IMG/VR virus record: IMGVR_UViG_3300012855_000001
Location: 1,419 to 65,418 of that record
Source: a virus
Lineage: Duplodnaviria; Caudoviricetes
Length of the DNA: 64,000 bases
Direction: 5' to 3' (one strand)
Shown: in pieces, positions 2,205-41,144 of the stretch
Position numbering within the stretch: position 1 is the first letter of the stretch
How the letters are laid out: each line of letters begins with the position of its first letter
Position numbers and translations under genes: made by a program
The notes under the pieces: model-generated
Database searches by the model: none
Told to the model about the DNA's origin: nothing
The model's input: the letters and a program-made list of their open reading frames with translations, nothing else

Positions 2205-3059
2205 ATGAGATTGATTTTAGCTTTTGTTTTTACGCTTTTTGTGCTGCCACTATTTGGGCAATATTACGCGCACGTATACACTCCGGCCGGCAGTAGTTAT
2301 GACCCAGATTTTCAGGCTGTGCTCGATGAGGCAACTAACCTGGGGTATACTTTACCCTCTGCCTCCCAGCAGGATGCCATGAACCAGTTTGTTATTGATG
2401 CCAAAGCCTCAGGATACTGGTCTGACCTTGATTATTTTGCAGTCCACGCACATGACGCGGATATAAATTTTTGTAGGATTAACTGGGTAAACCCAACAGA
2501 CACAAAGGCCACATTTACAGGGGTTGACCATGTGGATGACCAGGGGTGTGACTGTAGTGCCACGTCTGGGCGCATGGACTCAAATTGGCGGTTTACAGAT
2601 GGGCCGAATAATGTAAATAGCGATGTAGCGGCAGGGGTGTGGGTTGACTGGATAAATAGCGGGAGTACAACTTATTATTATTTAGGGGATGGCAGCTCCA
2701 CTAGCACATCAAATTTTACCAGATTTAGAGGTGGCCAGTTTGGCGTGACTGTTGGGATTACGAACAATTACAATGCGTTTTTGAGTGCTGGGCAGCAAAG
2801 CGAGGGTTTGTTTTCTGCCTTTACCTCTGGTGGGGTAACTGGTGCTAAGAAAGATAACACGATTTTGTTTAGCACTTCATCTTATACCCTGCTGACTTAC
2901 AACACAAACGATGTGTTTTTTATGTCCAGTTTTGGAGTCTCGAATGGGTGCCAAGTGGGCAGGGTTTACCGCATGGTTTACGCGGGAGCTTTAGGCTCAT
3001 CTGAGATAGATGACCTTTACACTGATTTTGATAACTATTTGACAACTGTTGGAATATGA
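2205..3059 (+). CDS. Putative lectin-like virion/fibre-tip protein with Sec signal peptide
   Basis: MRLILAFVFTLFVLPLFG|Q signal, then YDPDFQAVLDEA...MNQFVIDAKASGYW, resembling a domain common in phage tail proteins; beta-rich remainder. Confidence 0.6.
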   Translation: MRLILAFVFTLFVLPLFGQYYAHVYTPAGSSYDPDFQAVLDEATNLGYTLPSASQQDAMNQFVIDAKASGYWSDLDYFAVHAHDADINFCRINWVNPTDTKATFTGVDHVDDQGCDCSATSGRMDSNWRFTDGPNNVNSDVAAGVWVDWINSGSTTYYYLGDGSSTSTSNFTRFRGGQFGVTVGITNNYNAFLSAGQQSEGLFSAFTSGGVTGAKKDNTILFSTSSYTLLTYNTNDVFFMSSFGVSNGCQVGRVYRMVYAGALGSSEIDDLYTDFDNYLTTVGI

Positions 3060-5614
3060 GAAAGCTTATTTTAACTGTCCTGACTTTATTGACTGCTGCT
3101 CTGTGTATGGGGCAATCTGATAAGATCATAAACCAGGGAGGGGGAGCCACTCAGGAGTTGAGTTATGACTCTGCAACTGGGCAGATGAGTATTACAGATG
3201 CCCAGGGGGCAACCATTACGTTGATGACAGGGGCCAGCTCTAGCAGCGATGGGCAGCGGGGCCTGGTGCCTCAGCCATTATCTGGAGAGGAGGGCCTTTT
3301 TTTACGTGGGGATGGAACATGGGCCAACCCTACTGTTGGCGGTGATAACTGGGGCAGCCAGGTGGCTCAAAGTTCTGGTTTTGTAGGTGGCAACGGCACA
3401 GCAGCAAACCGTCTCCGGCTTGTTCAAAACGGAGCTACAGACGGCCAGGTAATTGCCTGGGACAACGGGCTGGGGGAATGGGATGCCAGGGCGCAACTAG
3501 ACAGCCAATTGCTCAGCCTGTCAGCAAACACGCTGGAGCTGACAAACGGCGGCTCCGTAGACTTATCTGGGTACCTGGATAACACGGACACCCAGGATTT
3601 AAGCCTGGCAGCCAACGTGCTAAGCCTCACAGACGGCGGCTCTGTTGACTTATCTGGGTACCTTGACAACACGGACACCCAGGATTTAAGCCTGGCAGGT
3701 ACCACCCTAAGCCTGACAAACGGCGGCTCAGTTGATTTGAGCGCATTACAAGACGGTACGGGTACGGATGACCAGGAACTCACTTTAACTGGCAACACGC
3801 TCAGTATAGAGGGAGGGAATAGTGTAAGCCTGGCAGCGTATTTGGACAACACGGACACCCAGGATTTGAGCCTGGCAGGCAGTGTGCTCAGTTTGACAAA
3901 CGGCGGCTCTGTTGATTTGAGCAGCCTGGGTGGTGGAGACCCAGACCAAACGCTGAGCTTTTCGGGCACGACTTTAAGCATAAGCGGAGGCAATAGCGTG
4001 AATTTATCCAGTCTCCTGGACAATACAGACACCCAGGATTTGAGCCTGTCAGGCAGCGTGTTAAGCCTCACCAACGGTGGGAGTGTTGACCTCAGTAATG
4101 TTGATGACTCAGACATCCAATTTATTTCCATTAACACGTCCGGCTCTTTTTTGCAGTTTAGCCTCACAGACGCAAACACTAGCAGTTTAAATTTATTTAC
4201 AGATGTCACAATGGGCGGGGGAGGTTCACAGCTCAACCCTCTGTATGTGGATACCACGTATATTGCCACCCAGTACGACCTCACAAACGCCACAGCATCT
4301 GCTAGTAATGGTTTGAGCATAGACTCTGGGAGTGGAGATGTTGTACTGGGCGGCCCTATGACTCAAAAGGCTGTCATTGAGATGGAAAACCAGGCTATCG
4401 AGTTCAACGCGGACAATAACGGATTTACTGATTTTGACGCGGTAAGTGATAGTATTTTTATACGGTTTATTGATGGCCGTGGCGTGGTGTACGGATTTGG
4501 TGTCAGCGATGGGAACCAGCCAGGGTATTTGCTTATGGACAGGGTGTATGGCTCAGATTACACAAAACTGATTGCATACAATGAGTCTGACAAAATCAAT
4601 GTAGGGGATTTGTCTAAAGAGCTGGAGCTGGTTGGTTTTGAGTATTACCTCAATAGTGGCTTTAGTGTTGATACATTAGCCGCTGGGACTGTTGACTATT
4701 TACTGGGTTTCAATAGCTCCACCGGGCAATTTGGGCCCACCACTCAACTCACAACAAATGGCGGCGGCAGCAGTGGCGGCGGCGCATTTTCAACCACAAA
4801 CAATGTCACCAGTAATGCCCCAGGCGATTACGCAAATGATGACTTTGTGTTTGGCTCTCCTCAGCTCGATGGCAACGGCACGAACAATAGACGCATGTTT
4901 TTTGATGTCAGCAAAGGCTCACTGTATGCAAACGAGGCAACGGGGACAGAGTACGATGACACAAACAGAGGTTTTAACGTGTTCAACGCGTCCCGCAACA
5001 GTATTACATCCGGCTATGCCTCAGCGGCAATGGGTGGACAAAACAACACAGTGGTGGGGGCTGGTTCTGCTGCTGTGGCGTGTAGTGGCTGCGATTTGCC
5101 AATGAATTACTCAGTAGGCATGGGCATAGGCCCGAAAGTTTTAGAACCTCAGAGCTTTGTACACGGCAACGGCTCGTTTGACTCTGGAGAGGTAGGGCAA
5201 AGGCAGTACACGCGGCTGGTTCTTTATGGCGATGGCACAGGCACCTCTCAGTTTAATGTGTATGCCAGTAATGTAAACGCGGTAAACGTCCCCACAGATC
5301 ACATTTGGACTGGTACCTGGTATTGCAGTTTGCTGGTAACAACAGGCGGCGGCATAGTTGACCAGGGGGATTACAACCCCATATTTGGAGATTTTTACGC
5401 ATACAACCGGGGCGGCACCATGCAGGTACAGTACAGTGTTAGTGGAGCCTCTAACGTGTGGGATGACCCAGATATGAGCAACTCGGATGTTGAGTTAAAC
5501 GCTGACAATGTAAACAAAGCGGTACAGGTCAGAGTCCAGCCTAGCACAGACGGGGACTCTAATATGGAAACCAGGTGTGTGTGTGTTCTGGAGTTCGTAC
5601 AAACAGCATATTGA
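3056..5614 (+). CDS. Tail-fibre/adhesin-like repeat protein with Sec signal peptide
   Basis: MRKLILTVLTLLTAALCMG|Q signal; fibre motif GLVPQP...FLRGDGTW; about 7 TDxQDLSL repeats; SNAPGDYANDDFVFGS motif and short YadA-head-like repeats (SAAMGGQNNTVVGAGSAAV). Confidence 0.75.
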   Translation: MRKLILTVLTLLTAALCMGQSDKIINQGGGATQELSYDSATGQMSITDAQGATITLMTGASSSSDGQRGLVPQPLSGEEGLFLRGDGTWANPTVGGDNWGSQVAQSSGFVGGNGTAANRLRLVQNGATDGQVIAWDNGLGEWDARAQLDSQLLSLSANTLELTNGGSVDLSGYLDNTDTQDLSLAANVLSLTDGGSVDLSGYLDNTDTQDLSLAGTTLSLTNGGSVDLSALQDGTGTDDQELTLTGNTLSIEGGNSVSLAAYLDNTDTQDLSLAGSVLSLTNGGSVDLSSLGGGDPDQTLSFSGTTLSISGGNSVNLSSLLDNTDTQDLSLSGSVLSLTNGGSVDLSNVDDSDIQFISINTSGSFLQFSLTDANTSSLNLFTDVTMGGGGSQLNPLYVDTTYIATQYDLTNATASASNGLSIDSGSGDVVLGGPMTQKAVIEMENQAIEFNADNNGFTDFDAVSDSIFIRFIDGRGVVYGFGVSDGNQPGYLLMDRVYGSDYTKLIAYNESDKINVGDLSKELELVGFEYYLNSGFSVDTLAAGTVDYLLGFNSSTGQFGPTTQLTTNGGGSSGGGAFSTTNNVTSNAPGDYANDDFVFGSPQLDGNGTNNRRMFFDVSKGSLYANEATGTEYDDTNRGFNVFNASRNSITSGYASAAMGGQNNTVVGAGSAAVACSGCDLPMNYSVGMGIGPKVLEPQSFVHGNGSFDSGEVGQRQYTRLVLYGDGTGTSQFNVYASNVNAVNVPTDHIWTGTWYCSLLVTTGGGIVDQGDYNPIFGDFYAYNRGGTMQVQYSVSGASNVWDDPDMSNSDVELNADNVNKAVQVRVQPSTDGDSNMETRCVCVLEFVQTAY

Positions 5615-6190: not shown

Positions 6191-6218
6191 ATACCAGGTG
6201 ATTTGCTTATATTGTGAT

Positions 6219-6280
6219 CAACATGAGATTATGATTTGTTACGCCAGAGGCTTTGGTTGATTCCAGAGCCTCTTTTTATT
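6219..6280 (+). ncRNA. Candidate small RNA A
   Basis: TATATTGT box at 6208-6215, then about 60 nt ending in hairpin AGAGGCTTTGG/CCAGAGCCTCT plus T tract; no credible ORF. Confidence 0.35.
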
Positions 6281-6313
6281 TGCACGTCCTGTTTTCTTTG
6301 CATACCTTTACAG

Positions 6314-6403
6314 CCTCACCGCTGACAACTTCAGTGGTTTGTGGTAAAAGCCAGCGGCTCTGCATTTTATTTGCAGGGCCGTTGCTTGTTAAGGCTTTTT
6401 TTT
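6314..6403 (+). ncRNA. Candidate small RNA B, antisense to the ACCACAAACCA gene leader
   Basis: Promoter TTTG(6279-82)-N20-TACCTTTA(6303-10); hairpin 6318-6338; TGGTTTGTGGT at 6335-6345; 13-bp hairpin 6352-6384; T8 tract 6396-6403. Confidence 0.6.
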
Positions 6404-6415
6404 ATACCTTTGAGA

Positions 6416-6490
6416 CCGTTGAGAGACGGGTGACCGTTTACGAATGCAAAAAACGTCCATAAGGCCAGCCTGCAAAGCTGGTCTTTTTTT
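6416..6490 (+). ncRNA. Candidate small RNA C
   Basis: TACCTTTG at 6405-6412, then about 75 nt ending in AGGCCAGC/GCTGGTCT hairpin plus T7. Confidence 0.4.
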
Positions 6491-6553
6491 ATTGCTGGGA
6501 ATTTTATATATTTACCGCTGGACATTTTTTTGCAACCACAAACCATTTTTCTC

Positions 6554-7684
6554 ATGGTATTCAATCTCAACATTGACCAGGAGTTTTGCCTGGCTCTAGG
6601 CCTCAAACCCACAAACGCTGAGGCATACGTTTTATCCTACCTTACAAAGGCAGCCACCTGGGCAGAGCCTATACAGATCAAAAAGCAAACATGGTATTTT
6701 GTCTCCCGCACAAAGGTAGTGGCTGACCTGCCGTGGATAAGCAGGAAACCAGACACCATTTACAGGTACTTTACTGCCCTGGCAGATAAAAACCTCATCG
6801 AGTACCAAAAAATGGGCAAATACGATTGCATAAGGCTGGAGGAGGTTTGCCAGTTTTGGGGCAAAGCTAAAGGGGAGGAGTTCCTCGGACACTTATCCGA
6901 GCACTCGGACAGGTATCCGGGCGCACTCGGACAGGTATCCGAATTTTACTCGGACAGGTATCCGACATACTATAGTATTATATTAGATAATAGTATTAAA
7001 GATACTAAAGGGGATTTTCCAAAATCCCCACCCACTCAACCTGAGGCTGGGAAAAGTAAAAAAGCAGCCATTCCAGAGGACGTGGCAAAGCTCCTGGAGG
7101 ACAGTGGGGACAAACAGCATAAGCTCTGGACTCGGTTGACCCAGAAAACGCGGAAGTATATACCCCAGGTGCTGGAGGTGGTGAGTTATTACAACGAGAT
7201 CACTGGTACCAGCACAAAGCCATACACGGTGGGGGTATATGACAACGTGGTGCGGTGGCTTAAAGAGGGCCACACCCTGGAGGACTTTAAAGATGTGCTG
7301 AATTACAAATACTGGTACTTTACGGAAAAGATGCCAGAACCCTCCAACATCAACCTGGAGACCTGGCTGAGGCCCAAACGCTTTGAGGGTAACCTAGAGC
7401 GGGCAAAGGTCTGGAAACAACAGGAGGCTCCTGTTGATTTATCAAAAGCCACAAACGAGTCATACATCAATTTTGTGCAGTATGTGAGCAAGTCCGAGCT
7501 AGATTTACAGCGGTTTATACCAACGGAGGCACAGTACGTGGATTACCTGGAGCGTAACTCAGGCAACCAGGCAGGAGCCAAAAGCAGGCTAGTGGCAGCT
7601 CTCAACAAACTGGTGCAAGACCCCAGAAAGTACAGCCACACAAACCTCATAGACCTGGCAGAGGGTGCCAAACAGTTTGCGTAA
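6554..7684 (+). CDS. Replication initiator (lambda O-like; N-terminal winged helix plus conserved phage C-terminal domain)
   Basis: WYFVSRTKVVADLP...KPDTIYRYF N-terminus; YYNEITG...RWLKEGHTLEDFKDVL...RFEGNL C-terminal motif; internal iterons. ATG 6554 chosen because it follows the leader motif. Confidence 0.8.
   Translation: MVFNLNIDQEFCLALGLKPTNAEAYVLSYLTKAATWAEPIQIKKQTWYFVSRTKVVADLPWISRKPDTIYRYFTALADKNLIEYQKMGKYDCIRLEEVCQFWGKAKGEEFLGHLSEHSDRYPGALGQVSEFYSDRYPTYYSIILDNSIKDTKGDFPKSPPTQPEAGKSKKAAIPEDVAKLLEDSGDKQHKLWTRLTQKTRKYIPQVLEVVSYYNEITGTSTKPYTVGVYDNVVRWLKEGHTLEDFKDVLNYKYWYFTEKMPEPSNINLETWLRPKRFEGNLERAKVWKQQEAPVDLSKATNESYINFVQYVSKSELDLQRFIPTEAQYVDYLERNSGNQAGAKSRLVAALNKLVQDPRKYSHTNLIDLAEGAKQFA
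6884..7010. repeat. Iteron-type replication origin
   Basis: Four CTCGGACAGGTATCCG-like repeats at 6884, 6904, 6926 and 6949, each a TCGGA-N6-TCCG(A) dyad, followed by an AT-rich tract at 6971-7010. Confidence 0.8.
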
Positions 7685-7734
7685 TTGCAAATATTTTGGT
7701 ATCTTTGCCTTATTAACAACCACAAACCACAACC

Positions 7735-8646
7735 ATGAAAGAGACATTTAAGCCTCTGGCCATGCGGCCAGATACAGAGCAGTACCTCCACCGTGTTAAC
7801 TCGATTTTAGAGGAGTTTGCCGCTGACGGGTATACGCTCACCCTCCGGCAATTGTACTACCAACTGGTGGGCCGGGATGAGATAGCAAACTCAACATCCA
7901 GCTATAACAAGTTAGGCCGGGTAATTGCCTCAGGCCGGCTGGCTGGACTCATTGACTGGGAGCACATAGAGGACAGGCTCAGGGTGGTCTCAAAGACAAC
8001 TACCTGGGACTCTCCCAAACAAATCCTGGAGGCAGCAGCCAGGCAATTTAAGTACGACAGGCTCCAGGGCCAACAGAATTACCTGGAGGTTTGGGTGGAA
8101 AAGGACGCACTCTCCCAGGTAGTTGAGCGGGCTGCCCAGCCCTACCAGGTGCCCGTAATGGTCAATAGGGGCTATGGCTCCGTGTCGGCCATGTATGAGG
8201 CATACAGGCGTTTTGAGCGGGAGATGGGCCAGGGCAAAGAGCGTTGTTTTATCCTTTACCTCGGAGACCATGACCCCAGTGGGCTGGATATGGTCAGGGA
8301 TATTGAGGACAGAGTTGGGGGCATGTTGGACTCTGGTGAGTATTCAGCGGGCAGCTCTGACCGTTTGCAGGTTGTCCACATAGCTCTCACAATGGAGCAA
8401 ATAAAACGATATAGCCCACCACCAAACCCGGCAAAGATTACAGACTCCAGAGCTGGGGAGTACATCAAACGGCATGGGATGAAATCCTGGGAGGTTGACG
8501 CATTGCCTCCCAAAACGCTCGTTAAGCTTATTACAGAGCACCTGGAGCAGCACCTGGATGTTGAGCTGTATAACTCGATAAAAGCAAAGGAGGAGGCTGT
8601 CAGGGGCCGTGCACTCGATTACATAAACGATTTTGAGGATGAGTAA
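7735..8646 (+). CDS. Topoisomerase VI A / Spo11-like protein (Mini-A type)
   Basis: TLRQLYYQL (WHD Tyr), VWVEKDAL, and LGDHDPSG TOPRIM DxD motifs. Confidence 0.8.
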   Translation: MKETFKPLAMRPDTEQYLHRVNSILEEFAADGYTLTLRQLYYQLVGRDEIANSTSSYNKLGRVIASGRLAGLIDWEHIEDRLRVVSKTTTWDSPKQILEAAARQFKYDRLQGQQNYLEVWVEKDALSQVVERAAQPYQVPVMVNRGYGSVSAMYEAYRRFEREMGQGKERCFILYLGDHDPSGLDMVRDIEDRVGGMLDSGEYSAGSSDRLQVVHIALTMEQIKRYSPPPNPAKITDSRAGEYIKRHGMKSWEVDALPPKTLVKLITEHLEQHLDVELYNSIKAKEEAVRGRALDYINDFEDE

Positions 8647-9430
8647 AAAGCAACAAAACCCCATCCTCTCCAAGCACTACCCAGACGGGTGCAACCTCTG
8701 TGGCGGTGAGGTATTGATCAAAGAAAAGATTAACAGGGGTATAAAATGGACTAGCAACAGGGGGTTTTATATCGAGTGTGCCGAGTGCGGGGCCAACACG
8801 GGGCTGTTTTACAATGGCAACCCCAGGCCCCTGGGCCCTGTCAATGAGCAGGCAGATGCCAGGCTCTGGGCAGCGGGTGCTATAAACGCGGTGATTGATT
8901 TTAAACATGCGTACAAAGGCGAGACGCTGGAGCAGGCCCGTGCGGGCGCAATGGATTACCTCAGCAAGCAATTGGGCCGGGAGATCACAGGCCCTGAGTT
9001 TATGAGCACGGAGGAGGCAAATAAAGCGTTTGACCTCCTGGTGCCAGAGAGCACACCCTCGTACCTAAAAATGCACTATAGGTATTACAACACAGTGCTG
9101 TACCCAAACCAGTCCTGGTGCAAAGCTTTTGGCCTTTACTCTGGTTTCCGTTTGCTGAGTGATATTTTTTTTGAGTACAGCAACTCCTCCCATTTTCTCC
9201 TCATTTTGGAGCGCACAGAAAAGAGGGTGGCAAACAGGGTGGTGGCAACATTCCGGCACTATGACCCACAGCATTCAGAAAAGCACGGGGAGGAGCTGGC
9301 TTTATTCCTTTTTGAGAACGGCCTGGACGTTAGTTTTGCCCCACGTAAATGGATTGCAGGCCTACCTGGTGACCATTACCAGGTCACACTGGACAGGGGG
9401 CTGGATGAGGTACTGGATTATTTTAAATAA
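8633..9430 (+). CDS. Zinc-ribbon protein (DUF3268-like N-terminus)
   Basis: CNLC...CAECGANTG...PLG pattern. Confidence 0.55.
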   Translation: MRMSKKQQNPILSKHYPDGCNLCGGEVLIKEKINRGIKWTSNRGFYIECAECGANTGLFYNGNPRPLGPVNEQADARLWAAGAINAVIDFKHAYKGETLEQARAGAMDYLSKQLGREITGPEFMSTEEANKAFDLLVPESTPSYLKMHYRYYNTVLYPNQSWCKAFGLYSGFRLLSDIFFEYSNSSHFLLILERTEKRVANRVVATFRHYDPQHSEKHGEELALFLFENGLDVSFAPRKWIAGLPGDHYQVTLDRGLDEVLDYFK

Positions 9431-9824: not shown

Positions 9825-9848
9825 TAACAACCACAAACCACGTTCTAA

Positions 9849-12056
9849 ATGATTATCGAATTTGTAGAAAAAGCCCTCAATAGGAGGTTTAAGATGCTCC
9901 CGCTGGAGGATTTGTCCTACAGTGCACCCAGGCAATGGTGTGCCTTTAGGACTTTGTTTCCGTATGACCAGAGCATATACAGCCACATGCAGACGCGTGT
10001 CTCTGAGAAGTACCCACGGGGCAACGTGGAGGGGTATGAGGGGCCTCTGTTTTGCGATGAGGTTGTTTTTGACTTTGACGGGGGCGAGACCGCTGAGGAG
10101 ATTGACATGGCACGGCAGGACGTGCGGACGCTGGCAAACAGGCTGGCAACAAAGTACAAACTCCCAGTAAATGACATTAGCCTCTATTTCTCAGGGGGCA
10201 AAGGTTTCCACTTAGTAGTCAGTGCTGAGCATTTTGGAGGTTTTCCGAACAATGAAAAGGTGCCCGAAATTGTGCGGGAGACAGTCCGGCAGTTGGCCGG
10301 CGATTTGAAAACCCTGGACATGGGCCTCTATACTGTGACTCGCATAATACGCTTGCCAAACTCAAAGCATGAGGGTACGGGCATGTTTAAAATCCCATTA
10401 AAGCCTGAGGAGCTGTCAATGGAAGTGGAGGAGATTACAGCCATAGCGGCCTCTGGCCCGCGTCCAGAAATACCCAGGGCCTGGAATAAAATAATATTGC
10501 CCAAAGATGGGCTGGTGCTCCTCAAAGAGAATGCGATCACAAAACCTGCCCAGGTGTCTGGCCAGCGGGACATTGAGGAGACAGTGCCCAAAGACGATGA
10601 GGGCCGGTTTAACCTGGCAGTAAAACTGACTCAGCGCAAATACAGTGAGGAAGATTATTACAACCACAACAGGAACAACTACATTTTCCAGTTGGCAGCC
10701 TGGTGCAATGACCTGGGCGTGGGCACGGCTGGAGATGGGCAGGGAGTCTGGAACCTTATTGTAAACCACCTCATAAATGACTTTGAGGAGGTACCCAGCA
10801 AGTGGGAGCCAAAGGACGCTAAAGAGTTTGAGAGGACTGCCGTGGGCGTATACGAGCGCAAACCCTCAGACCACGGGAAAAAGACAGATTTTGTGGCACT
10901 AGAGAGGAGCGTGGAGGGGGACAGGTTCAAAGCGGAGCTGGAACTCATAGAGGTCACAAAGAAGTTGGCCCGCACTAACCTGTCCCTCAGAGATACGCGG
11001 CGTTTTGTTGCTGCTATAAATGCAACATCAAAGCTGGTGCTCCCAGAGGATAAGGTCTCAGAGGTAGTGCTCAGGCATAGCACCCGCAACTTTCAGAGAG
11101 ACAGCGGGAATATAGGGTACACCACAGAGGAGCTGGCACCCAAATACATTGAGCGCATACTGCCCACCCTCACTGGCCGGCACCAGACCCTGGGTATCCC
11201 TTTTGTTGACGAGGCTGAGGAGTATAACTATGCAGGCAAATACCTGCAAATCTTTGGCAAAGGTGGCGTGGGTAAATCCACTCTGCTCATGCACATTGTA
11301 CGTTCATTTACGGCCCAGCATTTTCGTGCTCTCCATTCAACCATGGAGGACAGCGCGGTGGGTATATTTAAGCGTGTAATAATGGGCCTCCTCCAGGCAG
11401 AGGAGCTGAGGGATGACCAGGAGAATGTTGTTGGGTACGAGTCCAAGTACCCAAAATTGATGTCCAGCATAAAAGACCCAGCGAGGAGAGACCAGGCATA
11501 CCAGTGGATGCTCAGGGAGCTGAGAGCTAGGTATGGAAACAGGTGGATTGTTGACGATGTTGGCGGCATGAGCGAGGAGCTTTATTCTAAACTGATCGAG
11601 GCTAACATACGGAAGCACGGCACCGTTGATATGTTGGGGGTGGATGGGCACAGCATGATGGCCCGGCACGGCAATGAGTTTGAGAGTGATGTGGAGAACG
11701 CGGCAGGGCTTAAAAGGCTGGCAAACAAATGGGACATGCTGGTGGCTGACCTCATCCACGTCCCCACCCCTATATCCAGAGAGCAGAGGAGCCTGGAGTA
11801 CACCCCACGGAGTGGTACCAAAGTAATGGAGCCAGCAGATTTTTATATATCGCTCAGCTCTATCCTCGACCCTGAAAAGTCAAATATAGGAGACCCGCAA
11901 TATTACAAAGAGTTTGTTTACATGAGGTACCACGGCAAGCGTACCAGCGGCAAAACGCTGGACGGCATTATGCACATTGACCCGGTGACGCTGACGGTTT
12001 CAATACTAGACCAGCCAGCCAAAGACTTTATGGAGGAGCACTCCAGCATTTTTTAA
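9849..12056 (+). CDS. Primase-helicase fusion (AEP/PrimPol plus SF4/DnaB-like helicase)
   Basis: AEP motifs VFDFDG, FSGGKGFH and RIIRLPNSKH; Walker A GKGGVGKS; Walker B-like MLGVDG. Confidence 0.85.
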   Translation: MIIEFVEKALNRRFKMLPLEDLSYSAPRQWCAFRTLFPYDQSIYSHMQTRVSEKYPRGNVEGYEGPLFCDEVVFDFDGGETAEEIDMARQDVRTLANRLATKYKLPVNDISLYFSGGKGFHLVVSAEHFGGFPNNEKVPEIVRETVRQLAGDLKTLDMGLYTVTRIIRLPNSKHEGTGMFKIPLKPEELSMEVEEITAIAASGPRPEIPRAWNKIILPKDGLVLLKENAITKPAQVSGQRDIEETVPKDDEGRFNLAVKLTQRKYSEEDYYNHNRNNYIFQLAAWCNDLGVGTAGDGQGVWNLIVNHLINDFEEVPSKWEPKDAKEFERTAVGVYERKPSDHGKKTDFVALERSVEGDRFKAELELIEVTKKLARTNLSLRDTRRFVAAINATSKLVLPEDKVSEVVLRHSTRNFQRDSGNIGYTTEELAPKYIERILPTLTGRHQTLGIPFVDEAEEYNYAGKYLQIFGKGGVGKSTLLMHIVRSFTAQHFRALHSTMEDSAVGIFKRVIMGLLQAEELRDDQENVVGYESKYPKLMSSIKDPARRDQAYQWMLRELRARYGNRWIVDDVGGMSEELYSKLIEANIRKHGTVDMLGVDGHSMMARHGNEFESDVENAAGLKRLANKWDMLVADLIHVPTPISREQRSLEYTPRSGTKVMEPADFYISLSSILDPEKSNIGDPQYYKEFVYMRYHGKRTSGKTLDGIMHIDPVTLTVSILDQPAKDFMEEHSSIF

Positions 12057-13566: not shown

Positions 13567-13620
13567 AATGGTATCTTGCACCCGTTAGGAATTACAGCGG
13601 CCAAAACCACAAACCACGGT

Positions 13621-14355
13621 ATGGCCGAGAAATTGACCACGCTGGAGCTGTTTAGGGCCCGGCAGCAGTCTAAAAAACACACGGTTGTCATAGAAAGCTA
13701 CGACAAAAAATACGACTTCTCTAGCCCACCCATTGATAAAACAATGGGGCGCATTATAATTGGCATAGACTCAGACACAAAAGCGTGTGGAGTCAGTGCC
13801 TATGATACCAGGGACGGCTCTGTGCCTTTTTATGAGGAGGTGGAGCCAGCGTTTATGCAGGAGTGCCTGGGGGATTTGCAACGGGATTATGGCAAAGACT
13901 TGGTTTTATTCCGTCTGGAGACCATAACCATGCAAACCATTTACGGAGTGGTTAAGGATTTGAGGGCAGCCCTCAGGGGCAAGGCCTCAAAACAGGAGAT
14001 CGAAAAGCAGGTGTTTGCGTTGACGTTGCACTCTGGCAGGTGCCATGAGATTTGCAATAGCATAATAGCGTCTTTTCGCAGGCTCCATGCACCGCACCAT
14101 CTGGTGCCCTCCCAGAACAGAACCAACTTTAAAAAAGGCCGGTTTAGGCAAATGGAGGATGAGCAGTTTGTGCGGTATTTGAAACAGTGTTTTATGTCTA
14201 ACAGGGACAGGTGTTACCCGTCTAAAGTTAGCGCGAAAAAATTAAAGCTTGCATTTCCAGCCGTAAAGGTGGCCGGGAGTGAAGAAAATAAAGACGCTTT
14301 GCTGCTGGCCTGCCCTGAGGCCGCATACAGGAAATTGCAGCGAAAAGAGCGTTAA
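13621..14355 (+). CDS. RuvC-like Holliday junction resolvase
   Basis: IIIGIDSD...CGVSAY N-terminal RNase H-fold strand, FRLE, and C-terminal KDALLLA. Confidence 0.6.
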   Translation: MAEKLTTLELFRARQQSKKHTVVIESYDKKYDFSSPPIDKTMGRIIIGIDSDTKACGVSAYDTRDGSVPFYEEVEPAFMQECLGDLQRDYGKDLVLFRLETITMQTIYGVVKDLRAALRGKASKQEIEKQVFALTLHSGRCHEICNSIIASFRRLHAPHHLVPSQNRTNFKKGRFRQMEDEQFVRYLKQCFMSNRDRCYPSKVSAKKLKLAFPAVKVAGSEENKDALLLACPEAAYRKLQRKER

Positions 14356-14370
14356 GATTTACACACCTTT

Positions 14371-14457
14371 CCTGGCAATTCCTGCCGGGAATCTGGTTTG
14401 TAGTGTTGTTATTATCCCGAAAGCCCAGGACTCCCAAACCCTGGGCTTTCTTTTTTT
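14371..14457 (+). ncRNA. Candidate small RNA D (or 3'UTR-derived), antisense to the AACAACAC(A)CAAACCA leaders
   Basis: Hairpin 14371-14389; TGGTTTGTAGTGTTGTT at 14394-14410; terminator GAAAGCCCAGG/CCTGGGCTTTC plus T7 at 14419-14457. Confidence 0.45.
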
Positions 14458-14474
14458 ACCACAACCCATTTGAG

Positions 14475-16403: not shown

Positions 16404-18107
16404 ATGGATACCACAGACCACAAGACCCACCAGGAGGGAGAGGCACCTAATGAGGAGGCCCAAAAATACGGCCTCTTTTACGGCCGTTCGATAAAGCGAA
16501 ACCGCATAATTTTGATGGTTGCGCACATTCTGTCTGTTTTTATTACAGGCATAACGGTGCACTCGGTCATTGACTCCACGCTGTCCACTTACAGCGTTGA
16601 CAATGCCTTTATTGATTTGTTGACGGTCATTATTGCTGTTGCTGTGTCGTTGGCAATCGAGCGGGGCTATACAGACCAGTGGCACCTGTTTTTCCGGCAG
16701 CGGATACGCGGGTATACGGAGGGCACATATAGGGCCATGTACCGCTCCACACTCATAAAGCTGGTGTTTTTCTCTGCCCTCAACCCACTCACCGTTTTTA
16801 TCGGCAGCGTCAATGTATCTGACCAGATCACTCCAGAGTTTGACGGGTATAACTCCAGGGAGCTGGCTGCTGAGTACCGGGAGAAAAAAGAGGCCCAGGA
16901 CAGCATTGGCCAGATTAAAGTGGCACAGATAGAGGCAGACCTGGAGCGGGCAAAATCCAGGGTGGAGTCCAAATACAATGCCCAGATCATTGCAGCAGAG
17001 CAGGAGCTGGCCCGGTGGGACTCTTTGGAGAAAATACGAAACCGAACGTATTTGAGCCTAAAAACCAAAGCCATGCAAAAAGCTCAGGCCGCTGAGTCCG
17101 AAAAGCAGGCAGAGCTGGCAGAGTTAGACGGCACTATGCTGTCAAAGAGGGAGGAGGTCTTTGCCCAGGTTGAGGAGGCCAAAGACGAGCTAGAGGCTGA
17201 GTTTGAGCACATAGACAAACAGCTCCTCACAGCCAGCGGAAAAGATGAGAGCAGGCATAATGCAACCGGGATGGCAATTACAGCCCTTACCATACTCCTG
17301 GGTTTTTTCTCCTGGGCTGTGGTTATCTCTTTGGGGTATGAGCTGGAGCTGTATTACCACAGGACTGAGCAGGAGCTGTTTTCCCAGTTGGTCAAGCCAT
17401 CGAGCGGCAACGGGGAGCGCATATTTAGGGCCCTACAGCAGCAGGTGGATGTCCGGGCCTATAACTTTGGTTCTCTGGTTGAGAGCCTGGTACCAGACAA
17501 AAAGGATAGAGAATACTATGCCAACAGAAAAACTATTTTTGGCATATTCAAAGGCAGGGCAGCCAGGAGGCATGAGGAGGCACAGAGGGCCATTAAAGGC
17601 CTCCAGGAGCTTATTGCCCTGGAGAGACCAACAGAAAGCCCTGAGGGGCTTAATACAGGCCTAGCGGCAGAGCATGAGAGGTTAAAGCTGGAGCTAGAGC
17701 AGGCCCGGCAAGCAAACGGCACCTCAGACGGCCGGCTGCTGTCCCGTTCTGCCCAGCCCTCTGCCACGGCGGTTGAGCGGCCTGAGGCTGTTGGTATCAC
17801 ATACCAGGAGGGCAAGGTTGAGAAAATAGGCACAGAGGAGTACCTCCTCAAAAATAACCAGGCATACCTGGTTTACCAGTCAAAGCGAAAAGGGCAGGTA
17901 CAGCACCTCACCCAGGAGGACTGCCGAAAAAGGTGGGGCAGCTATGGCAGCAAGCTGTCAGCCTCTAATGATGAGTTAAAGGCAGCAAAGACGGTTAAGG
18001 ATGAGCAGCGCATAAAGAATAAGATAGAGCGGCAGATGGCAAACAGGCAATACTGGGACAAAACATACAGGACTATCCAACAACTGAATAAAAATTTTGC
18101 ACCATGA
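16404..18107 (+). CDS. Multi-TM coiled-coil membrane protein
   Basis: Three N-terminal hydrophobic helices, a long E/K/A-rich coiled coil, a fourth TM and a soluble tail; own TATATTTG promoter box near 16375. Confidence 0.7.
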   Translation: MDTTDHKTHQEGEAPNEEAQKYGLFYGRSIKRNRIILMVAHILSVFITGITVHSVIDSTLSTYSVDNAFIDLLTVIIAVAVSLAIERGYTDQWHLFFRQRIRGYTEGTYRAMYRSTLIKLVFFSALNPLTVFIGSVNVSDQITPEFDGYNSRELAAEYREKKEAQDSIGQIKVAQIEADLERAKSRVESKYNAQIIAAEQELARWDSLEKIRNRTYLSLKTKAMQKAQAAESEKQAELAELDGTMLSKREEVFAQVEEAKDELEAEFEHIDKQLLTASGKDESRHNATGMAITALTILLGFFSWAVVISLGYELELYYHRTEQELFSQLVKPSSGNGERIFRALQQQVDVRAYNFGSLVESLVPDKKDREYYANRKTIFGIFKGRAARRHEEAQRAIKGLQELIALERPTESPEGLNTGLAAEHERLKLELEQARQANGTSDGRLLSRSAQPSATAVERPEAVGITYQEGKVEKIGTEEYLLKNNQAYLVYQSKRKGQVQHLTQEDCRKRWGSYGSKLSASNDELKAAKTVKDEQRIKNKIERQMANRQYWDKTYRTIQQLNKNFAP

Positions 18108-18475: not shown

Positions 18476-18518
18476 ATTATTTGTAACTTTGGCTTATTAA
18501 CAACCACAAACCACAGCC

Positions 18519-19484
18519 ATGAAAAAAGCTATATTAGAGAGGCTCCAGAAAGCGTACACGCCACAGGAGCTGGCAATTATCAACGATGTATTTGGTACAC
18601 TCGATGAGCACCACTTTGTTGTCAAGGCACCCAAACAGGTAAAAGAAAACCTGAGCTTATGGGTGGACGCAATGCTCACAAATCCAGCCTGGTTAAAGCC
18701 CATAGAGGGCAAAGGCAAAATGAAAACCTCGGATGCGCAGAAAATGCGCAAAAAGGCCACAGCTATTTGGGGGCCACAGGGTAAAGGCTGGGGTTTTGAG
18801 GAGACCCGGTACGAGATCAATAATTTTGGGAGCATTAAGCTGTCAGCAAACAGCGAGTTCCCGGCCATCCAATTGGTTTTCCATGCCATATTTTTTTATC
18901 ACTCTAACGGTGAGCGTGTAAGCTTTCCAATCACTACGGATATATGGATGTTTAGGAGTCAATTCGATAGCCGAACCAACCAGTATATGTACAAGCCAGT
19001 GAGTGATACTCACAAAATGGTAATGACAGACGCAATGAGTAAGGCTCTGTCATTTACTGGAGTGGGTACTGACCTATTTGAGGGCCTCCACGATGACAAC
19101 AAATACCAGGCGGCAGCGCGGGACGCTTTCCAGGCTTATGAGGTACCACAGACCAAAAAGCCAGAGCCTCCAAAGGCTCAGGAGGACAGCAACAAGTCCC
19201 GGCCGATGTCATTTAGCAAAGATCAAACCCTCTGGATAGTCAACGCAATGCTGGGGGGCAGCACCCACAATGAGGTTGTTGCCAAATTCCGAGAGAATGG
19301 CTTTACAGTGAATAACAATGATATTGCCATTATTAAAGGTATTGCCTCTCTCGTTGCCAAAAAGAAAGCCAACGAGCCAGCAAAGAACTGGCAAGAGGCG
19401 GCCAAAAAGGCACTGGGTGACAAGTACCTGCCAGTAAGCAAAGCAGTGGATACCGTAATGGGAAACACCCAGGACAATGGATAA
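18519..19484 (+). CDS. Rad52/Sak-like single-strand annealing protein
   Basis: WGPQGKGWGF...HKMVMTDAMSKALSFTGVGTDLFEGLHDDNKY. Confidence 0.75.
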   Translation: MKKAILERLQKAYTPQELAIINDVFGTLDEHHFVVKAPKQVKENLSLWVDAMLTNPAWLKPIEGKGKMKTSDAQKMRKKATAIWGPQGKGWGFEETRYEINNFGSIKLSANSEFPAIQLVFHAIFFYHSNGERVSFPITTDIWMFRSQFDSRTNQYMYKPVSDTHKMVMTDAMSKALSFTGVGTDLFEGLHDDNKYQAAARDAFQAYEVPQTKKPEPPKAQEDSNKSRPMSFSKDQTLWIVNAMLGGSTHNEVVAKFRENGFTVNNNDIAIIKGIASLVAKKKANEPAKNWQEAAKKALGDKYLPVSKAVDTVMGNTQDNG

Positions 19485-22097: not shown

Positions 22098-22166
22098 GTC
22101 TTAAAAAATTTGGGACATTGAAAGTATTTGCATATCTTTGAGGCTAAGCAATAACAACCACAAACC

Positions 22167-22901
22167 ATGAGTAAAAAACAGCAAAAAGAAAAGGCAGAGG
22201 CTCCAGAGTACACGCTGGTGGACTTTGAGCACTGCCCGGTCTCTTTTCCTTACCCTACCCCAGAGGAGATGGCCAAAGACCGTAGACGCGTATCCATGCA
22301 CAACCTGGCTGTTGCGTGTGGATGGGCTAATGAAAACCAGGCGCGGGAGGTCTATAAGTTAGCAGGCAGGCAAATGCGTGTTTTCCGAACTACAGAGGAG
22401 CGAGAGGCAGACCCGTGGAGGTATTCCATTTGCAGCTCTTTAGACGTGGAGTGCCAGGGGGGGATGTTGGATTTTTACGCTCCCAACCCTCGGCTCTTAT
22501 TCCAGCAGGACAGCAGCTCTGATTTTCAGCATGTATTTGAGCGCCACCATTTAGTCCCTTTCAATCACGGGGATATACGGGTATGGCTAAAGCCAGGTAC
22601 CAACCTGAAACGAAGCTATATAGACGCGTTTTGCGTGGGTGGGCTAAATTTCCGGCACAATGAGCTGGAGGCGGCTGAGATAATTGCCGCAATGGCTGAG
22701 GCTGCCCACATGGCATACGCGGTGGTGCCTACAAAGCAGGTACAGGTAAACCCTGGGTATGAGGCCAAAGACCTGGCCCAGGTAATGGAATATTTGACTT
22801 TTAAGGGTGTGCCATTCGAGGTGCAGCCTTTTAAACCTATACATGGCTTTTATTTAATCACAGCCTCCCACGCTAAGCATTGGCGGCGGTGGGTTTGGTA
22901 A
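22167..22901 (+). CDS. Hypothetical protein
   Basis: 244-aa ORF after a TATCTTTG promoter box and the ACCACAAACC leader. Confidence 0.75.
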   Translation: MSKKQQKEKAEAPEYTLVDFEHCPVSFPYPTPEEMAKDRRRVSMHNLAVACGWANENQAREVYKLAGRQMRVFRTTEEREADPWRYSICSSLDVECQGGMLDFYAPNPRLLFQQDSSSDFQHVFERHHLVPFNHGDIRVWLKPGTNLKRSYIDAFCVGGLNFRHNELEAAEIIAAMAEAAHMAYAVVPTKQVQVNPGYEAKDLAQVMEYLTFKGVPFEVQPFKPIHGFYLITASHAKHWRRWVW

Positions 22902-22928
22902 CCACATTTTAAACCACAAATCACAATT

Positions 22929-28361: not shown

Positions 28362-28526
28362 GAAACAGGCCCAGAGCCTGGAGTATTACTCCCCCGTGGG
28401 GCACCCTCCTGCCTGGGCTGCCTCACTTTTTTTTACAGATAAATGCCAAATTATTTGGAATTGTCCAGACTTATGTGCACCTTTGTAATTGTCAGAGAGA
28501 GACACACAACACACAAACCAAAGATT

Positions 28527-28895: not shown

Positions 28896-28977
28896 TTTGG
28901 AATTGCCGTTTAGGTTCCTTACCTTTACGGATGTCAGAGAGACACAGAGTATTTAACAACACACAAACCACAGCAAA

Positions 28978-29292: not shown

Positions 29293-29429
29293 ACACAACA
29301 GCCCAGGCAGCCCCACCAGGCACCTGGGCATTTTTTTTGCAGAAACATTCCATAATATTTGGAATTGCCCCAGAGGTTTTGCACCTTTGTAATTGTCAGA
29401 GAGATACAACAACACACAAACCACAGAAC

Positions 29430-30487: not shown

Positions 30488-30680
30488 AGAGCAGGGGAGC
30501 CACCACCCCACCCCAGGGCAAACCATTGCCCAGGACTCTGACCTGGTGGATATTTGTGGGAGGTCTTTGTGTGGGCCTCTCACTTTTTTTACAGATATGT
30601 TCCATATTATTTGGAATTATCAAATAGTATGTGCACCTTTGTAACTGTCAGAGAGATACAACACACACAAACCAGAAGTT

Positions 30681-31100
30681 ATGAGAAAGTATAAGAAAAT
30701 GCCCATTATGTCCCTTGCCTCCCAGGTATACGTGGACATCCAGGATAAGGTTGAGAGCGATGACCCACGCGTGGTATACGCAATGGTGCTTTCAAACGTT
30801 GAGAGCCTCAGGGGCCAGGCTTGTACCGCTGTGGAGCGGGAGTCCATCCGGGATGCCCTGGAGTTTATGGGACTCGCACCCCTGCCCACCCTGGCAGATG
30901 TTGAGGACGGCACAGAGGTATACCTCCCCAGCCAGCGGGACGGCTGGACATACTGGGGCAAACATACCGTGCGGTTTGTCTCCCACTACGGGGACGGGCC
31001 AATGATCGAAACCAGCCACGGACTGATTGCAGCAAAGCCTCACAGAGATTACCTCCCAGCCACAGCCCAGTTTAAAGCCATTATGGGCTACCTGGTGTAA
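30681..31100 (+). CDS. Cassette hypothetical protein
   Basis: ATG after the repeated leader. Confidence 0.75.
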   Translation: MRKYKKMPIMSLASQVYVDIQDKVESDDPRVVYAMVLSNVESLRGQACTAVERESIRDALEFMGLAPLPTLADVEDGTEVYLPSQRDGWTYWGKHTVRFVSHYGDGPMIETSHGLIAAKPHRDYLPATAQFKAIMGYLV

Positions 31101-31172
31101 GGCACACAGATAAAACCACTCCTGGAGGCTCTCAGAGCCTCTGGGGCTATTCAATAACCACAAACCACTTAT

Positions 31173-31355: not shown

Positions 31356-31465
31356 TTTGATTTTATTTGCAATTAGGTGCCATATTATTTGGAATTGTCA
31401 AATAGTATGTGCACCTTTGTAATTGTCAGAGGGAAGCATATTACACAACACACAAACCAGAGACA

Positions 31466-32149: not shown

Positions 32150-32244
32150 TTATTTTTACATTAGGTGCCATATTATTTGGAATTGCCAATTAATATGTGC
32201 ACCTTTGTAATTGTCAGAGAGATACAACACACAAACCAAGTACA

Positions 32245-32544: not shown

Positions 32545-32573
32545 TTTTACAACACACACACAAACCACCGAGA

Positions 32574-33008: not shown

Positions 33009-33061
33009 AACCCTGGGGGCATGTCCCCCACTCTTTTTTTTTCTCACCACAAACCACGTTT

Positions 33062-33394: not shown

Positions 33395-33533
33395 ACCCCA
33401 GGATACAGGGGCCTCACAGCGGGGCCTCCTATTTTTTTGCAATAAATATTCCATATTATTTGGAATTGTCCAGAACTATGTGCACCTTTGTAATTGTCAG
33501 AGGGAAACATACACAACACACAAACCATTTGTT

Positions 33534-33803: not shown

Positions 33804-33839
33804 CCAGCGGCCCGCTGTTCAGGGCAAAATCTTTGTACT

Positions 33840-34166
33840 ATGTTTTACGAGTTTGGGACTTTTCGGATGAGCGTTATTAAGGACACCAAAGGCTATGAGG
33901 TAGCCCTGGAGCCTGAGCACCACGGAGAGAAGCTCCTGGAGCCTTATCTGTACTATGAGGGCAAAAACGGCCTGAATACTTACAGGCTGGTACCCCAGGA
34001 GGTGCTGGAGGTGCTGACGGTAAAGCACACCATTTTCTCTGGCCGGGAGCGTGTGGCACTATGGGTGGGCCTCAGTATGGTCTCTGCCAGGTTCCCAGTG
34101 GAGGACGCGGCAGAGCGTTGGCTCAACGGTGATCGCAATGTGTCAGCCGGGGCCCTCCTAGTTTGA
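33840..34166 (+). CDS. Hypothetical protein
   Basis: 108-aa ORF. Confidence 0.65.
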   Translation: MFYEFGTFRMSVIKDTKGYEVALEPEHHGEKLLEPYLYYEGKNGLNTYRLVPQEVLEVLTVKHTIFSGRERVALWVGLSMVSARFPVEDAAERWLNGDRNVSAGALLV

Positions 34167-34416: not shown

Positions 34417-34558
34417 GGCAGGCATGGAGCTGGCAGTGCTGGCTCCTATTTTTTTTACAATTAGGTGCCATATTATTTGGAACTCTCGTTTATTATATGC
34501 ACCTTTGTAATTGTCAGAGGGAAAGAGATTATTTAACAACACACACAAACCGCAAACC

Positions 34559-35383
34559 ATGCAATTCGAGACAGGAAAAACTTACCGCATAAAGTTTATA
34601 GGTGACTCAGAGCTGGAGACACCTGCCACCGTTGTCAAGCGTACCGCAAAAACGGTATGGCTGGACATTCAGGGGGAGACGGGTATTGTCCGTAAAAAGA
34701 TCAAGCAATACGAGGACGGCACAGAATACTGTGAGCCATACGGCACCTACTCCATGCGGCCCTACCTGAGTGCGGCAAAGCCCGTACAGGAGGCTCCAGA
34801 GACACCTGAGGAGCCAGACGGCACCCAGGAGGCTCCAGAGGGCACTGAGGGCACCCCAGTGGCTACAGCAGCCTCTGAGGAGGCCTCTGAGCAGGAGGAG
34901 GAGCGTTTTTACTTGCTGACCATTACAGAGTCCACCTCTGTGTCCAGTAACATCCACAGCCCCAGAGGTAGCCAGGCACGAAACAGGGCCATCTCCAGTG
35001 CGGTTTATGGCTCTTTGCCCAGCCTCCTCTCAAAGTTGATGACTCAATGGATAGGAAAGTACACCCCAATTACTGGGGAGCTGTCAGCCCTGACACCTGG
35101 TGCCTTTAAAGTGTACACTCCCTATGGGAGCACGAACATTTTTTATAAGGTCACCAGGCTGGCCCCAGCCGGGACAGTAAACGCTGGGCTGCTTAGTGAG
35201 GATGAGCACAGCCTCCTCCAGCTCATCATTGAGTCATTCAGCCAGGGCAATTGCTGTGTGGTTGACATGGTGGATGGGCCATACTCTATGCCCACCCTGG
35301 CAAACCTCAAAGGGCGTGGCTTGGTAAAGTACACGGAGGTGGGGTTTGGCATGTATGACATTGAGCTGGCTGCCGGCCTATAA
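34559..35383 (+). CDS. Cassette multi-domain hypothetical protein
   Basis: N-terminal small beta domain (FETGKTY...VVKRTAKTV...PYGTYSMRPYL), acidic linker, and C-terminal wHTH-like segment. Confidence 0.7.
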   Translation: MQFETGKTYRIKFIGDSELETPATVVKRTAKTVWLDIQGETGIVRKKIKQYEDGTEYCEPYGTYSMRPYLSAAKPVQEAPETPEEPDGTQEAPEGTEGTPVATAASEEASEQEEERFYLLTITESTSVSSNIHSPRGSQARNRAISSAVYGSLPSLLSKLMTQWIGKYTPITGELSALTPGAFKVYTPYGSTNIFYKVTRLAPAGTVNAGLLSEDEHSLLQLIIESFSQGNCCVVDMVDGPYSMPTLANLKGRGLVKYTEVGFGMYDIELAAGL

Positions 35384-35448
35384 AGCGAAAAGACACAGGC
35401 CTGGGGTATTTGCTCCAGGCTATTTTTTAAAGACCACAAACCAATATT

Positions 35449-37131: not shown

Positions 37132-37615
37132 CAAACTTACTCAAAGCATTGAGCTGGTACCACCAGTTAAAGCCCTGAGTATACGGGAGCCATTTGCCTC
37201 GCTGGTGCTCCAGGGAAAAGTGGAGACCAGGAGGTGGGATACGTCCCACAGGGGCACCGTTTTGATTTGTGCCAGCCAGAGGGCGTTTAGGCCATCCGAG
37301 GTACTAAAGATTGCAGGCCCTTGGAATTACCAGCGGATTCTCCACTACGTGGGCCCTGACTGGGGCAAGCTTTGCGGCCATGCAATAGGTGTGGCTCGGC
37401 TAGTTAACACATGGAAAATGACCCCAGAGGATGAGGAGGCCACATTTGCCAGGTACCACTCTGGGCTGTACTGCCATAAGTATGCAGGGGTAAAGGCCAT
37501 TAACCCATTCCCTTTTAAAGGGCAGGTGAGGTGGACAAACCTGAGCCAGGAGCAAGTGGCACAGATCGAGCTGCCAGTTTTTGAGTTTCCAAATGATTTG
37601 GATTACTGGCACTAA
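37124..37615 (+). CDS. ASCH-domain protein
   Basis: KALSIREPFASLVLQGKVETRRW...RGTVLICAS. Confidence 0.85.
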   Translation: MTNKLTQSIELVPPVKALSIREPFASLVLQGKVETRRWDTSHRGTVLICASQRAFRPSEVLKIAGPWNYQRILHYVGPDWGKLCGHAIGVARLVNTWKMTPEDEEATFARYHSGLYCHKYAGVKAINPFPFKGQVRWTNLSQEQVAQIELPVFEFPNDLDYWH

Positions 37616-37650
37616 ATGCGTAATTTTGACAAAGCAACAAACCACAAACC

Positions 37651-37914
37651 ATGAGTAAAGAGACAGGAGTTTATCAATACGTAGACGTATCAAAAGCAAA
37701 GCAGCTCAGGCTGTTGTCACACATGGGGGATATGTTCTCCATGAGCTACCTTTTCGAGGATAAGACAATAAGCCTACACATGACCAAAGAGGAGGCCGGG
37801 CTGGTGCTTAGTATGCTGGCCAGCCAATTGTTGCCAGAGGAGCTGTCAGAGGCTGTGAGTGATCACATAGACAACATGGACAACTCGGATTTTATCACAC
37901 CCCAGATGGGGTAA
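37651..37914 (+). CDS. Hypothetical protein
   Basis: ACCACAAACC leader abutting the ATG. Confidence 0.7.
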   Translation: MSKETGVYQYVDVSKAKQLRLLSHMGDMFSMSYLFEDKTISLHMTKEEAGLVLSMLASQLLPEELSEAVSDHIDNMDNSDFITPQMG

Positions 37915-38593: not shown

Positions 38594-38640
38594 TTCCAAA
38601 ATATTTGGCTTATATTGCGACCATTACCACAAACCACAAC
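38594..38640 (+). promoter_or_regulatory. Promoter with operator-like dyad upstream of the HTH operon
   Basis: TTCCA-N7-TGGCT, TATATTGC box, ACCACAAACCA leader. Confidence 0.55.
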
Positions 38641-40160: not shown

Positions 40161-40235
40161 GCCCAAATATTTTGGAATACTCCAGATAATACATTACCTT
40201 TGAATTGTTCAATAATTTATAACAACCACAAACCA
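40161..40235 (+). promoter_or_regulatory. Cassette-type promoter with dyad
   Basis: GCCCA-N7-TGGAA, TACCTTTG box, ACCACAAACCA leader. Confidence 0.65.
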
Positions 40236-41129: not shown

Positions 41130-41144
41130 ACAAAACCACAGACC

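Follow-up and report, generated by a model that had tools for sequence, protein, structure and literature searches.

The DNA analyzed here, referred to as the window, is a stretch of 64,000 nucleotides (bases 1419–65418 of the 65.4-kb IMG/VR virus record IMGVR_UViG_3300012855_000001) in which nearly all genes lie on the + strand. PHROG matches identify a replication initiator (6554–7684), a topoisomerase-like protein (7735–8646), a primase-helicase (9849–12056), and an exonuclease-like protein (18519–19484), and a RuvC-like gene occupies 13621–14355 (+). Just upstream of the initiator gene is a run of three promoter–terminator units, one of which, W1 (6316–6403, +), is a candidate anti-leader small RNA (sRNA) of about 85–88 nt whose start is placed from its −7 box. 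No tRNA genes were found. TTTG-N19-21-TANNTTTG promoters, which are of the Bacteroidota type, are strongly enriched: the window has 11, against an expectation of 0.7, with 8 of the 11 on the + strand, and a slightly relaxed −7 box yields 17 on that strand. A Shine-Dalgarno (SD) motif is almost absent from the start regions of the window genes. Because of this promoter type and the near-absence of SD motifs, the host of this uncultured phage is presumably a member of the Bacteroidota.

A near-invariant C/A-rich leader adjoins the start codon of about twenty early and middle genes, including the initiator, topoisomerase-like, primase-helicase, nuclease, and HTH-operon genes and an array of small-gene cassettes, whereas no copy was found in front of any morphogenesis gene. 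The 9-nt core of the leader, CACAAACCA, occurs 20 times on the + strand and once on the minus strand (k-mer counts), and its copies fall into two classes: class I (n = 12), which has the full 11-mer ACCACAAACCA, and class II (n = 8). The preliminary description of this DNA had reported 12 + strand copies of the 11-mer and an exact inverted copy at 6335–6345, and each of these was recovered. This is not a chance occurrence, as the 13 exact copies compare with an expectation of 0.10 from shuffled sequences (both strands combined), and 13 copies were reached in 0 of 100 shuffles. All 12 + strand copies end −1 to 12 nt ahead of the ATG of a + strand gene.

Class I leaders sit behind ordinary promoters or hairpins, ahead of replication and other early genes. 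They precede, on the + strand, the genes for the replication initiator (6535–6545, ATG 6554), the topoisomerase-like protein (7719–7729, ATG 7735), the primase-helicase (9830–9840, ATG 9849), the RuvC-like protein (13606–13616, ATG 13621), and the exonuclease-like protein (18503–18513, ATG 18519). Further copies are located at 31157–31167 (ATG 31176), 33046–33056 (ATG 33062), 35433–35443 (ATG 35449), 38626–38636 (ATG 38649), and 40225–40235 (ATG 40241), and two overlap the start codon itself (22157–22167, ATG 22167; 37641–37651, ATG 37651). Class II leaders are preceded by an ACAACA-type sequence and, between 28.5 and 33.5 kb, follow a cassette promoter that is itself highly repeated. Their cores are at 28512–28520 (behind the cassette promoter), 28962–28970 (ATG 28978), 29415–29423 (ATG 29430), 30666–30674 (ATG 30681), 31451–31459 (ATG 31466), 32230–32238 (ATG 32245), 32559–32567 (ATG 32574), and 33519–33527 (a match to the 9-nt core), all on the + strand. 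Four more + strand copies carry one mismatch (14458–14468, ATG 14475; 22913–22923, ATG 22929; 34549–34559, overlapping ATG 34559; 41135–41145, overlapping the ATG at 41145).

Several leaders lie directly 3′ of a hairpin, in some cases one without a U-run (31100–31156, 33010–33045, and 35398–35432 in the window; 17270–17300 and 33810–33845 in the related phage G001, described below). These hairpins may be processing or stabilizing elements rather than terminators. In an unrelated phage locus (L156:13190–15743, minus strand), a different conserved leader is repeated nine times, accompanied by a small hairpin and, ahead of the ATG, by an SD-like AGAGGA, which indicates that repeated leaders occur in other phage lineages too.

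Units Complementary to the Leader

The promoter previously proposed for W1, TTTG-N20-TACCTTTA, is present by motif at 6279–6310 (+). It is of the Bacteroidota type, with the −33 TTTG at 6279–6282, a 20-nt spacer, and the −7 box at 6303–6310, and the same −7 variant is reused at identical spacing before gene 28978. The description of W1 as ORF-less is also borne out: ATG is absent from 6314–6403, and the sole overlapping ORF is a TTG-started frame of 69 codons (6253–6462) that crosses two terminators. The predicted folding energy of 6316–6403 is −37.5 kcal/mol (z −4.3). At the 5′ end is an 8-bp hairpin (6318–6338) in which 6318–6325 pair with 6331–6338. The 3′ end (6346–6403) resembles a terminator and consists of a 12-bp stem (6353–6364/6372–6383), an outer helix (6346–6352/6393–6399), and T8 (6396–6403). 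A 13-bp hairpin followed by T8 had been described; the hairpin and the T8 are both present, but the stem has 12 bp and T8 follows a 7-bp outer helix closed over a 9-nt internal loop, not the 12-bp stem directly, and a simple terminator scan made no call here.

The W1 seed (6334–6347) is an exact complement of the class I leader, extending over 11 nt at all 12 copies and, as had been stated, over 13 nt at 31157 and 14 nt at 38626. A conformational change that could expose more of the seed had been suggested. In the predicted fold, 6339–6347 are mostly unpaired (unpaired probability 0.6–0.99 for 6339–6345), whereas 6335–6338 are paired in the 5′ hairpin (0–0.14). About seven seed nucleotides and an A-run are thus accessible, and 4 of the 11 seed bases are buried. 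Of all minus-strand matches to the window's leaders, the inverted copy in W1 ranks best (14 nt, E 0.007). Predicted duplexes reach −20 to −23 kcal/mol on most class I start regions, the best predicted target being 38626 (−23.4 kcal/mol), and W1 attains −18 kcal/mol or better on 18 window start regions, where shuffled seeds do so on a mean of 0.26. In an energy scan of 21,324 + strand windows against the leaders, W1 ranks third. It matches no Rfam family at the gathering score. Two ORF-less hairpin-plus-terminator units flank W1 at 6195–6280 (fold z −5.2) and 6405–6491, the latter following a TACCTTTG box with a weak −33 region; neither contains a stretch whose complement is multi-copy in the phage.

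The second anti-leader element, W2 (14372–14457, +), begins 17 nt after the stop codon of the RuvC-like gene. It comprises a predicted 5′ hairpin (14372–14388), a G/U-rich seed (14392–14416), and an intrinsic terminator with an 11-bp stem and T7 (14419–14457), and the terminator is followed directly by the one-mismatch leader at 14458. Its own promoter is weak or doubtful, with a CACCTTTC box at 14364–14371 and no TTTG at −33. The seed is complementary to class II leaders over about 17–18 nt with one bulge, and predicted duplexes on class II start regions have energies of −21 to −25 kcal/mol, the best target being 31451 (−25.0 kcal/mol). In the scan of + strand windows W2 ties for the lowest energy (−23.2 kcal/mol), and it is an outlier among 49 regions upstream of terminators, the next best of which reaches −15.2 kcal/mol. 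The other member of the tie is a G/U-rich coding stretch (47641–47670) with no adjacent terminator, and its duplex energy is taken as chance.

Anti-Leader Sites in a Related Phage

With the initiator and primase proteins as single queries against viral contigs, no relative was found; a 16-mer of the leader gave single chance matches only, and the cassette promoter and the G001 leader used as patterns gave one unrelated match and G001 itself. A capsid alignment search retrieved G001 alone from viral contigs and nothing from genome contigs, and a primase alignment run against metagenome and genome contigs retrieved distant relatives only, all with at most 43% identity on the best segment. The phage GenBank collection yielded no DNA, primase-lineage, or capsid relative. 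Four of the more distant primase relatives (G002–G005) have no C/A-rich repeated leader, and are therefore unusable for a covariation analysis; none was seen in the other loci examined either. Two homologous proteins (P0001, 98% identical; P0002, 53% identical) point to further phages of the lineage.

The one usable relative, G001 (IMGVR_UViG_3300040801_002948), is 67.4 kb long with terminal repeats, has a primase 46% identical to that of the window, and is syntenic over nearly the whole genome. It is without any copy of the window's 11-mer. Its own leader differs, ending in AACCACACA before the ATG, and has 16 + strand copies. Two of the three minus-strand copies of this leader belong to genuine minus-strand genes with full promoters and a long leader. 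The third lies directly after the RuvC-like homologue, in the position of W2, within an anti-leader unit (7210–7332, +) that consists of TTTG-N20-TACCTTTG (7210–7241), a 5′ hairpin, a seed, and a terminator with a U-run. The seed is exactly complementary to 13 nt of the G001 leader, in a match that extends over the start codon. Its predicted duplexes attain −18 kcal/mol or better on 22 start regions of G001, compared with a mean of 0.85 for shuffled seeds. No cross-matching of seeds is seen between the phages; on the G001 leaders listed, the window seeds reach approximately −10 to −17 kcal/mol.

The units of the window and of G001 are unalignable apart from the −7 box, which means that complementarity to each phage's own leader has been kept while all else has diverged. 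The proteins flanking the syntenic units are about 42% identical, and the neighboring downstream genes are non-homologous. What is conserved between the phages is the position of the unit, its architecture, and its complementarity to the leader of the same phage. Covariation of seed and leader, which the preliminary description had suggested examining, is thus seen in the one relative, where a different leader is accompanied by a unit of the same architecture that matches it; the comparison covers two genomes, and W1, W2, and the G001 unit are not alignable with one another.

Two further + strand sites in G001 (9245–9256 and 37351–37366) are complementary to the 5′ part of its leader. They are located 6–9 nt after a stop codon and 5–6 nt before a terminator, and have no promoter. 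These 3′UTR sites are top matches by exact length (9245–9256: 12 nt, E 0.12) but only modest by energy rank. All five complements (two in the window and three in G001) share the coding-strand orientation and have a + strand terminator no more than 6 nt away, and in the three units bounded by promoters or hairpins the seed lies in a partly single-stranded gap before the terminator. The single RNA that had been proposed is therefore replaced by two units for two leader classes in the window and by three anti-leader sites in G001.

Candidate Function and Alternative Explanations

We consider it somewhat probable (roughly 0.55) that the phage encodes two or more anti-leader RNA elements, 6316–6403 among them, which pair with the shared leader and exert a regulon-wide effect on translation. 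The W1 RNA would have a promoter of its own, and W2 and the two G001 3′UTR sites would be transcribed as mRNA 3′ ends; the RNAs would pair in trans with the leader inside the ribosome footprint, W1 with class I and W2 with class II. Such pairing would block 30S loading and so lower the translation, and perhaps the stability, of the whole gene set. Since the pairing falls inside the footprint of the initiating 30S subunit, repression of translation is the simplest outcome, and the predicted result would be that early and middle genes are shut off or damped across the regulon, although the sequence is compatible with activation as well. The evidence favors selected RNA–RNA complementarity, most likely for GcvB-like translational repression of a phage regulon. 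It counts against an anti-leader function that one RNA species would have to titrate many mRNAs.

An inverted copy of a leader matches the leader of its own phage by construction, so complementarity alone is no proof of function, and the inverted copies could be gene starts that became inverted and persist as relics without function, or could have arisen as a by-product of recombination among leader repeats. The G001 match, which runs through the ATG and the following AAA like a copied gene start, is in keeping with such an origin. However, selection is argued for because the complement occurs at the same genomic position in two phages, each time matching the phage's own leader, where the flanking proteins have diverged to about 42% identity and the intergenic DNA is otherwise randomized; an unselected relic should have decayed. 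It is also argued for because all five complements share the coding strand and the proximity to a terminator, the top-ranked matches being these very sites, and because two of them have canonical promoters that drive nothing else. In addition, direct leader repeats would be expected to give deletions, not inversions. A relic is accordingly judged improbable. The inverted copies might, alternatively, be merely further sites of a DNA motif recognized by a protein that works in either orientation. Exact conservation over 11 bp is typical of such sites, and many copies are close to promoters, but the copies are fixed relative to the ATG (−1 to 12 nt) at variable distances from promoters, some following terminators with no promoter at all. 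The motif is not a dyad, its orientation follows the coding strand 12:1 (20:1 for the 9-nt core), and the inverted copies adjoin terminators, not promoters, which leaves a protein-binding site very improbable. Least probable of all is that the minus-strand copy is the true leader of a tiny minus-strand gene, the alternative that the preliminary description had named as a refutation. In the G001 unit an ATG does follow the minus-strand copy after 3 nt and opens 11 codons, and at W1 the minus strand has an E. coli-type promoter-like match (6392–6364). Against this, only one of the five units has such an ATG: at W1 the minus strand has no ATG nearer than 30 nt (that one opening 24 codons), the only closer start being a TTG with 6 codons, and W2 and the two G001 3′UTR sites have none. 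A TTTG/TAnnTTTG promoter is found on the minus strand at none of the five, whereas the genuine minus-strand genes of G001 carry a full promoter and a long leader.

Other explanations keep the RNA and change its role. The anti-leader stretches might act only as 3′UTR parts of longer mRNAs, pairing with the 5′ leaders of the same or other transcripts to stabilize or mark them (by end protection or as sites for a double-strand RNase), in which case activation is also possible. W2 and the two G001 sites at 9245–9256 and 37351–37366 do lie between a stop codon and the terminator of that mRNA (unlike W1, which two other terminators precede), W2 with its poor −33 region and the G001 pair with no promoter, and the G001 pair complements the leader portion adjoining the inferred start of transcription. 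Some of the elements may thus act as mRNA 3′ ends or processed fragments, and because three sites lie in 3′UTRs, a role embedded in the mRNA or acting in cis retains an appreciable share of the probability. As the sole explanation it is rather unlikely: W1 and G001 7210–7332 have full promoters from which they would be made alone, and the seeds match the leader of their own operon no better than others. Insulation of the next gene from read-through was considered and rejected, as a matching leader is missing from four of the five genes downstream, and the predicted pairing of W2 with the leader directly after it is poor (−9 kcal/mol). W1 has also been weighed as a transcription attenuator or leader of the initiator gene, in which seed pairing with abundant mRNAs that carry the leader, or refolding between 6319–6324 and 6352–6357, would modulate read-through into 6554–7684. 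Its place in the run of units upstream of the initiator agrees with this, as does the presence in G001 of an ORF-less promoter–terminator unit (523–642) just upstream of the initiator gene. The alternative 6-bp pairing, from which the preliminary description had derived a conformational switch, exists on paper, but it costs 13.5 kcal/mol and the terminator forms even with the seed blocked; the switch was accordingly dropped. Another terminator (6461–6490) lies between W1 and the initiator gene, and the G001 unit at 523–642 carries no anti-leader, which in that phage is elsewhere. Attenuation is therefore quite improbable on grounds of folding energy and the intervening terminator.

Within the preferred reading, trans-acting anti-leader RNAs, a more specific scheme is put forward tentatively, as possible though doubtful. 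The RNAs may constitute a timer: transcription of early genes and decay of their mRNAs would build up terminator-protected 3′ fragments and small transcripts containing the anti-leader, and these would progressively titrate the invariant leader that replaces the SD sequence. The early and middle set would thereby be shut off without a protein repressor, with a separate RNA for each leader class.

Comparison with Known Systems and Other Shared Features

The closest match in mode of action appears to be GcvB, which is described in PMC7534054 (citing Sharma et al. 2007) as repressing by pairing with CA-rich enhancers of many mRNAs. In both cases, here by sequence and predicted duplexes, a G/U-rich single-stranded stretch faces C/A-rich elements at or upstream of many start codons. 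GcvB is, however, host chromosomal and Hfq-dependent and targets amino-acid transport and metabolism, whereas the targets here are the phage's own genes with an almost invariant leader. The GcvB model (RF00022) gave the best Rfam score, 23.5 bits against a gathering score of 42, a generic hairpin match in which the seed is not aligned to the GcvB R1 region.

Phage-encoded antisense RNAs form the group that is closest in biology, to which the CI RNA of P4 belongs as a relative of c4. The c4 RNA of P1 and P7 acts on ant (PMC8198154). As is proposed for the units described here, c4 and P4 CI are phage-encoded small RNAs that pair in trans with repeated complementary sites in phage transcripts and block expression. 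They differ in that their targets are one or two sites within one immunity operon of a temperate element and in being processed from that operon, whereas the window units have some 12–20 dispersed targets spread over 6.5–41 kb. The Rfam C4 model gave no match at the gathering score or at E up to 5.

In Bacteroides thetaiotaomicron, the sRNA GibS represses SD-less mRNAs by annealing to the start region (PMC7366714), which indicates that the mechanism is feasible in such hosts. GibS, which with GcvB is the closest system in mechanism, is a trans-encoded Bacteroidetes sRNA with a single-stranded seed directed at start regions of SD-less mRNAs, but it is a host RNA that uses a long 5′ seed, and its two or three metabolic targets have no leader in common. 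The translational repressor RegA and the endoribonuclease RegB of T4 bring about a global post-transcriptional shut-off of many early mRNAs (PMC3014915). Here the likeness is one of purpose, a phage-encoded shut-off through a short signal in start regions; RegA and RegB are proteins, not RNAs, and recognize motifs of the SD region. The 3′UTR-derived sRNAs DapZ, MicL, CpxQ, and SroC originate from an internal promoter or by processing. Their seeds lie just upstream of the mRNA's own terminator, and their mixed origin would match that of the units here, although they are host sRNAs with unrelated targets.

The preliminary description knew of no such system. This holds only for the present combination; multi-target sRNAs acting on C/A-rich leaders (GcvB) and phage antisense RNAs (c4) are known. 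The section of a 2025 review that deals with phage sRNAs in the control of replication and lysogeny describes single-target or host-directed cases only, with none acting on a leader shared by many phage genes (PMC12197685). If the anti-leader reading is true, it would bear on how Bacteroidota phages time and balance translation without SD pairing. The units would then be an RNA counterpart of T4 RegA/RegB and a phage counterpart of GcvB, some twenty genes being under the control of one or two small RNAs, and the short leader/seed pair could possibly be reused as an orthogonal translational switch in Bacteroidota.

Two further features are shared by the phages. Most promoters in both have, overlapping or next to the −33 TTTG, a CCAAATATTTGG-type dyad that looks like an operator (e.g., 7690–7702, 28446–28458, and 40163–40175 in the window; throughout in G001). 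It is missing from the promoters of W1 and of the G001 anti-leader unit, the latter carrying in its place a 19-bp palindrome of its own over the −33 box. A short peptide repeat of the GGSVDLS type recurs many times in the tail-fiber-like proteins of the two phages (window 3056–5614; G001 59.8–65.7 kb). A frequent TTGACCTTT repeat of G001 was considered as a promoter and rejected, being a coding repeat of the tail fiber, and the GGSVDLS-type repeat is visible in G001 as a 17-copy DNA repeat.
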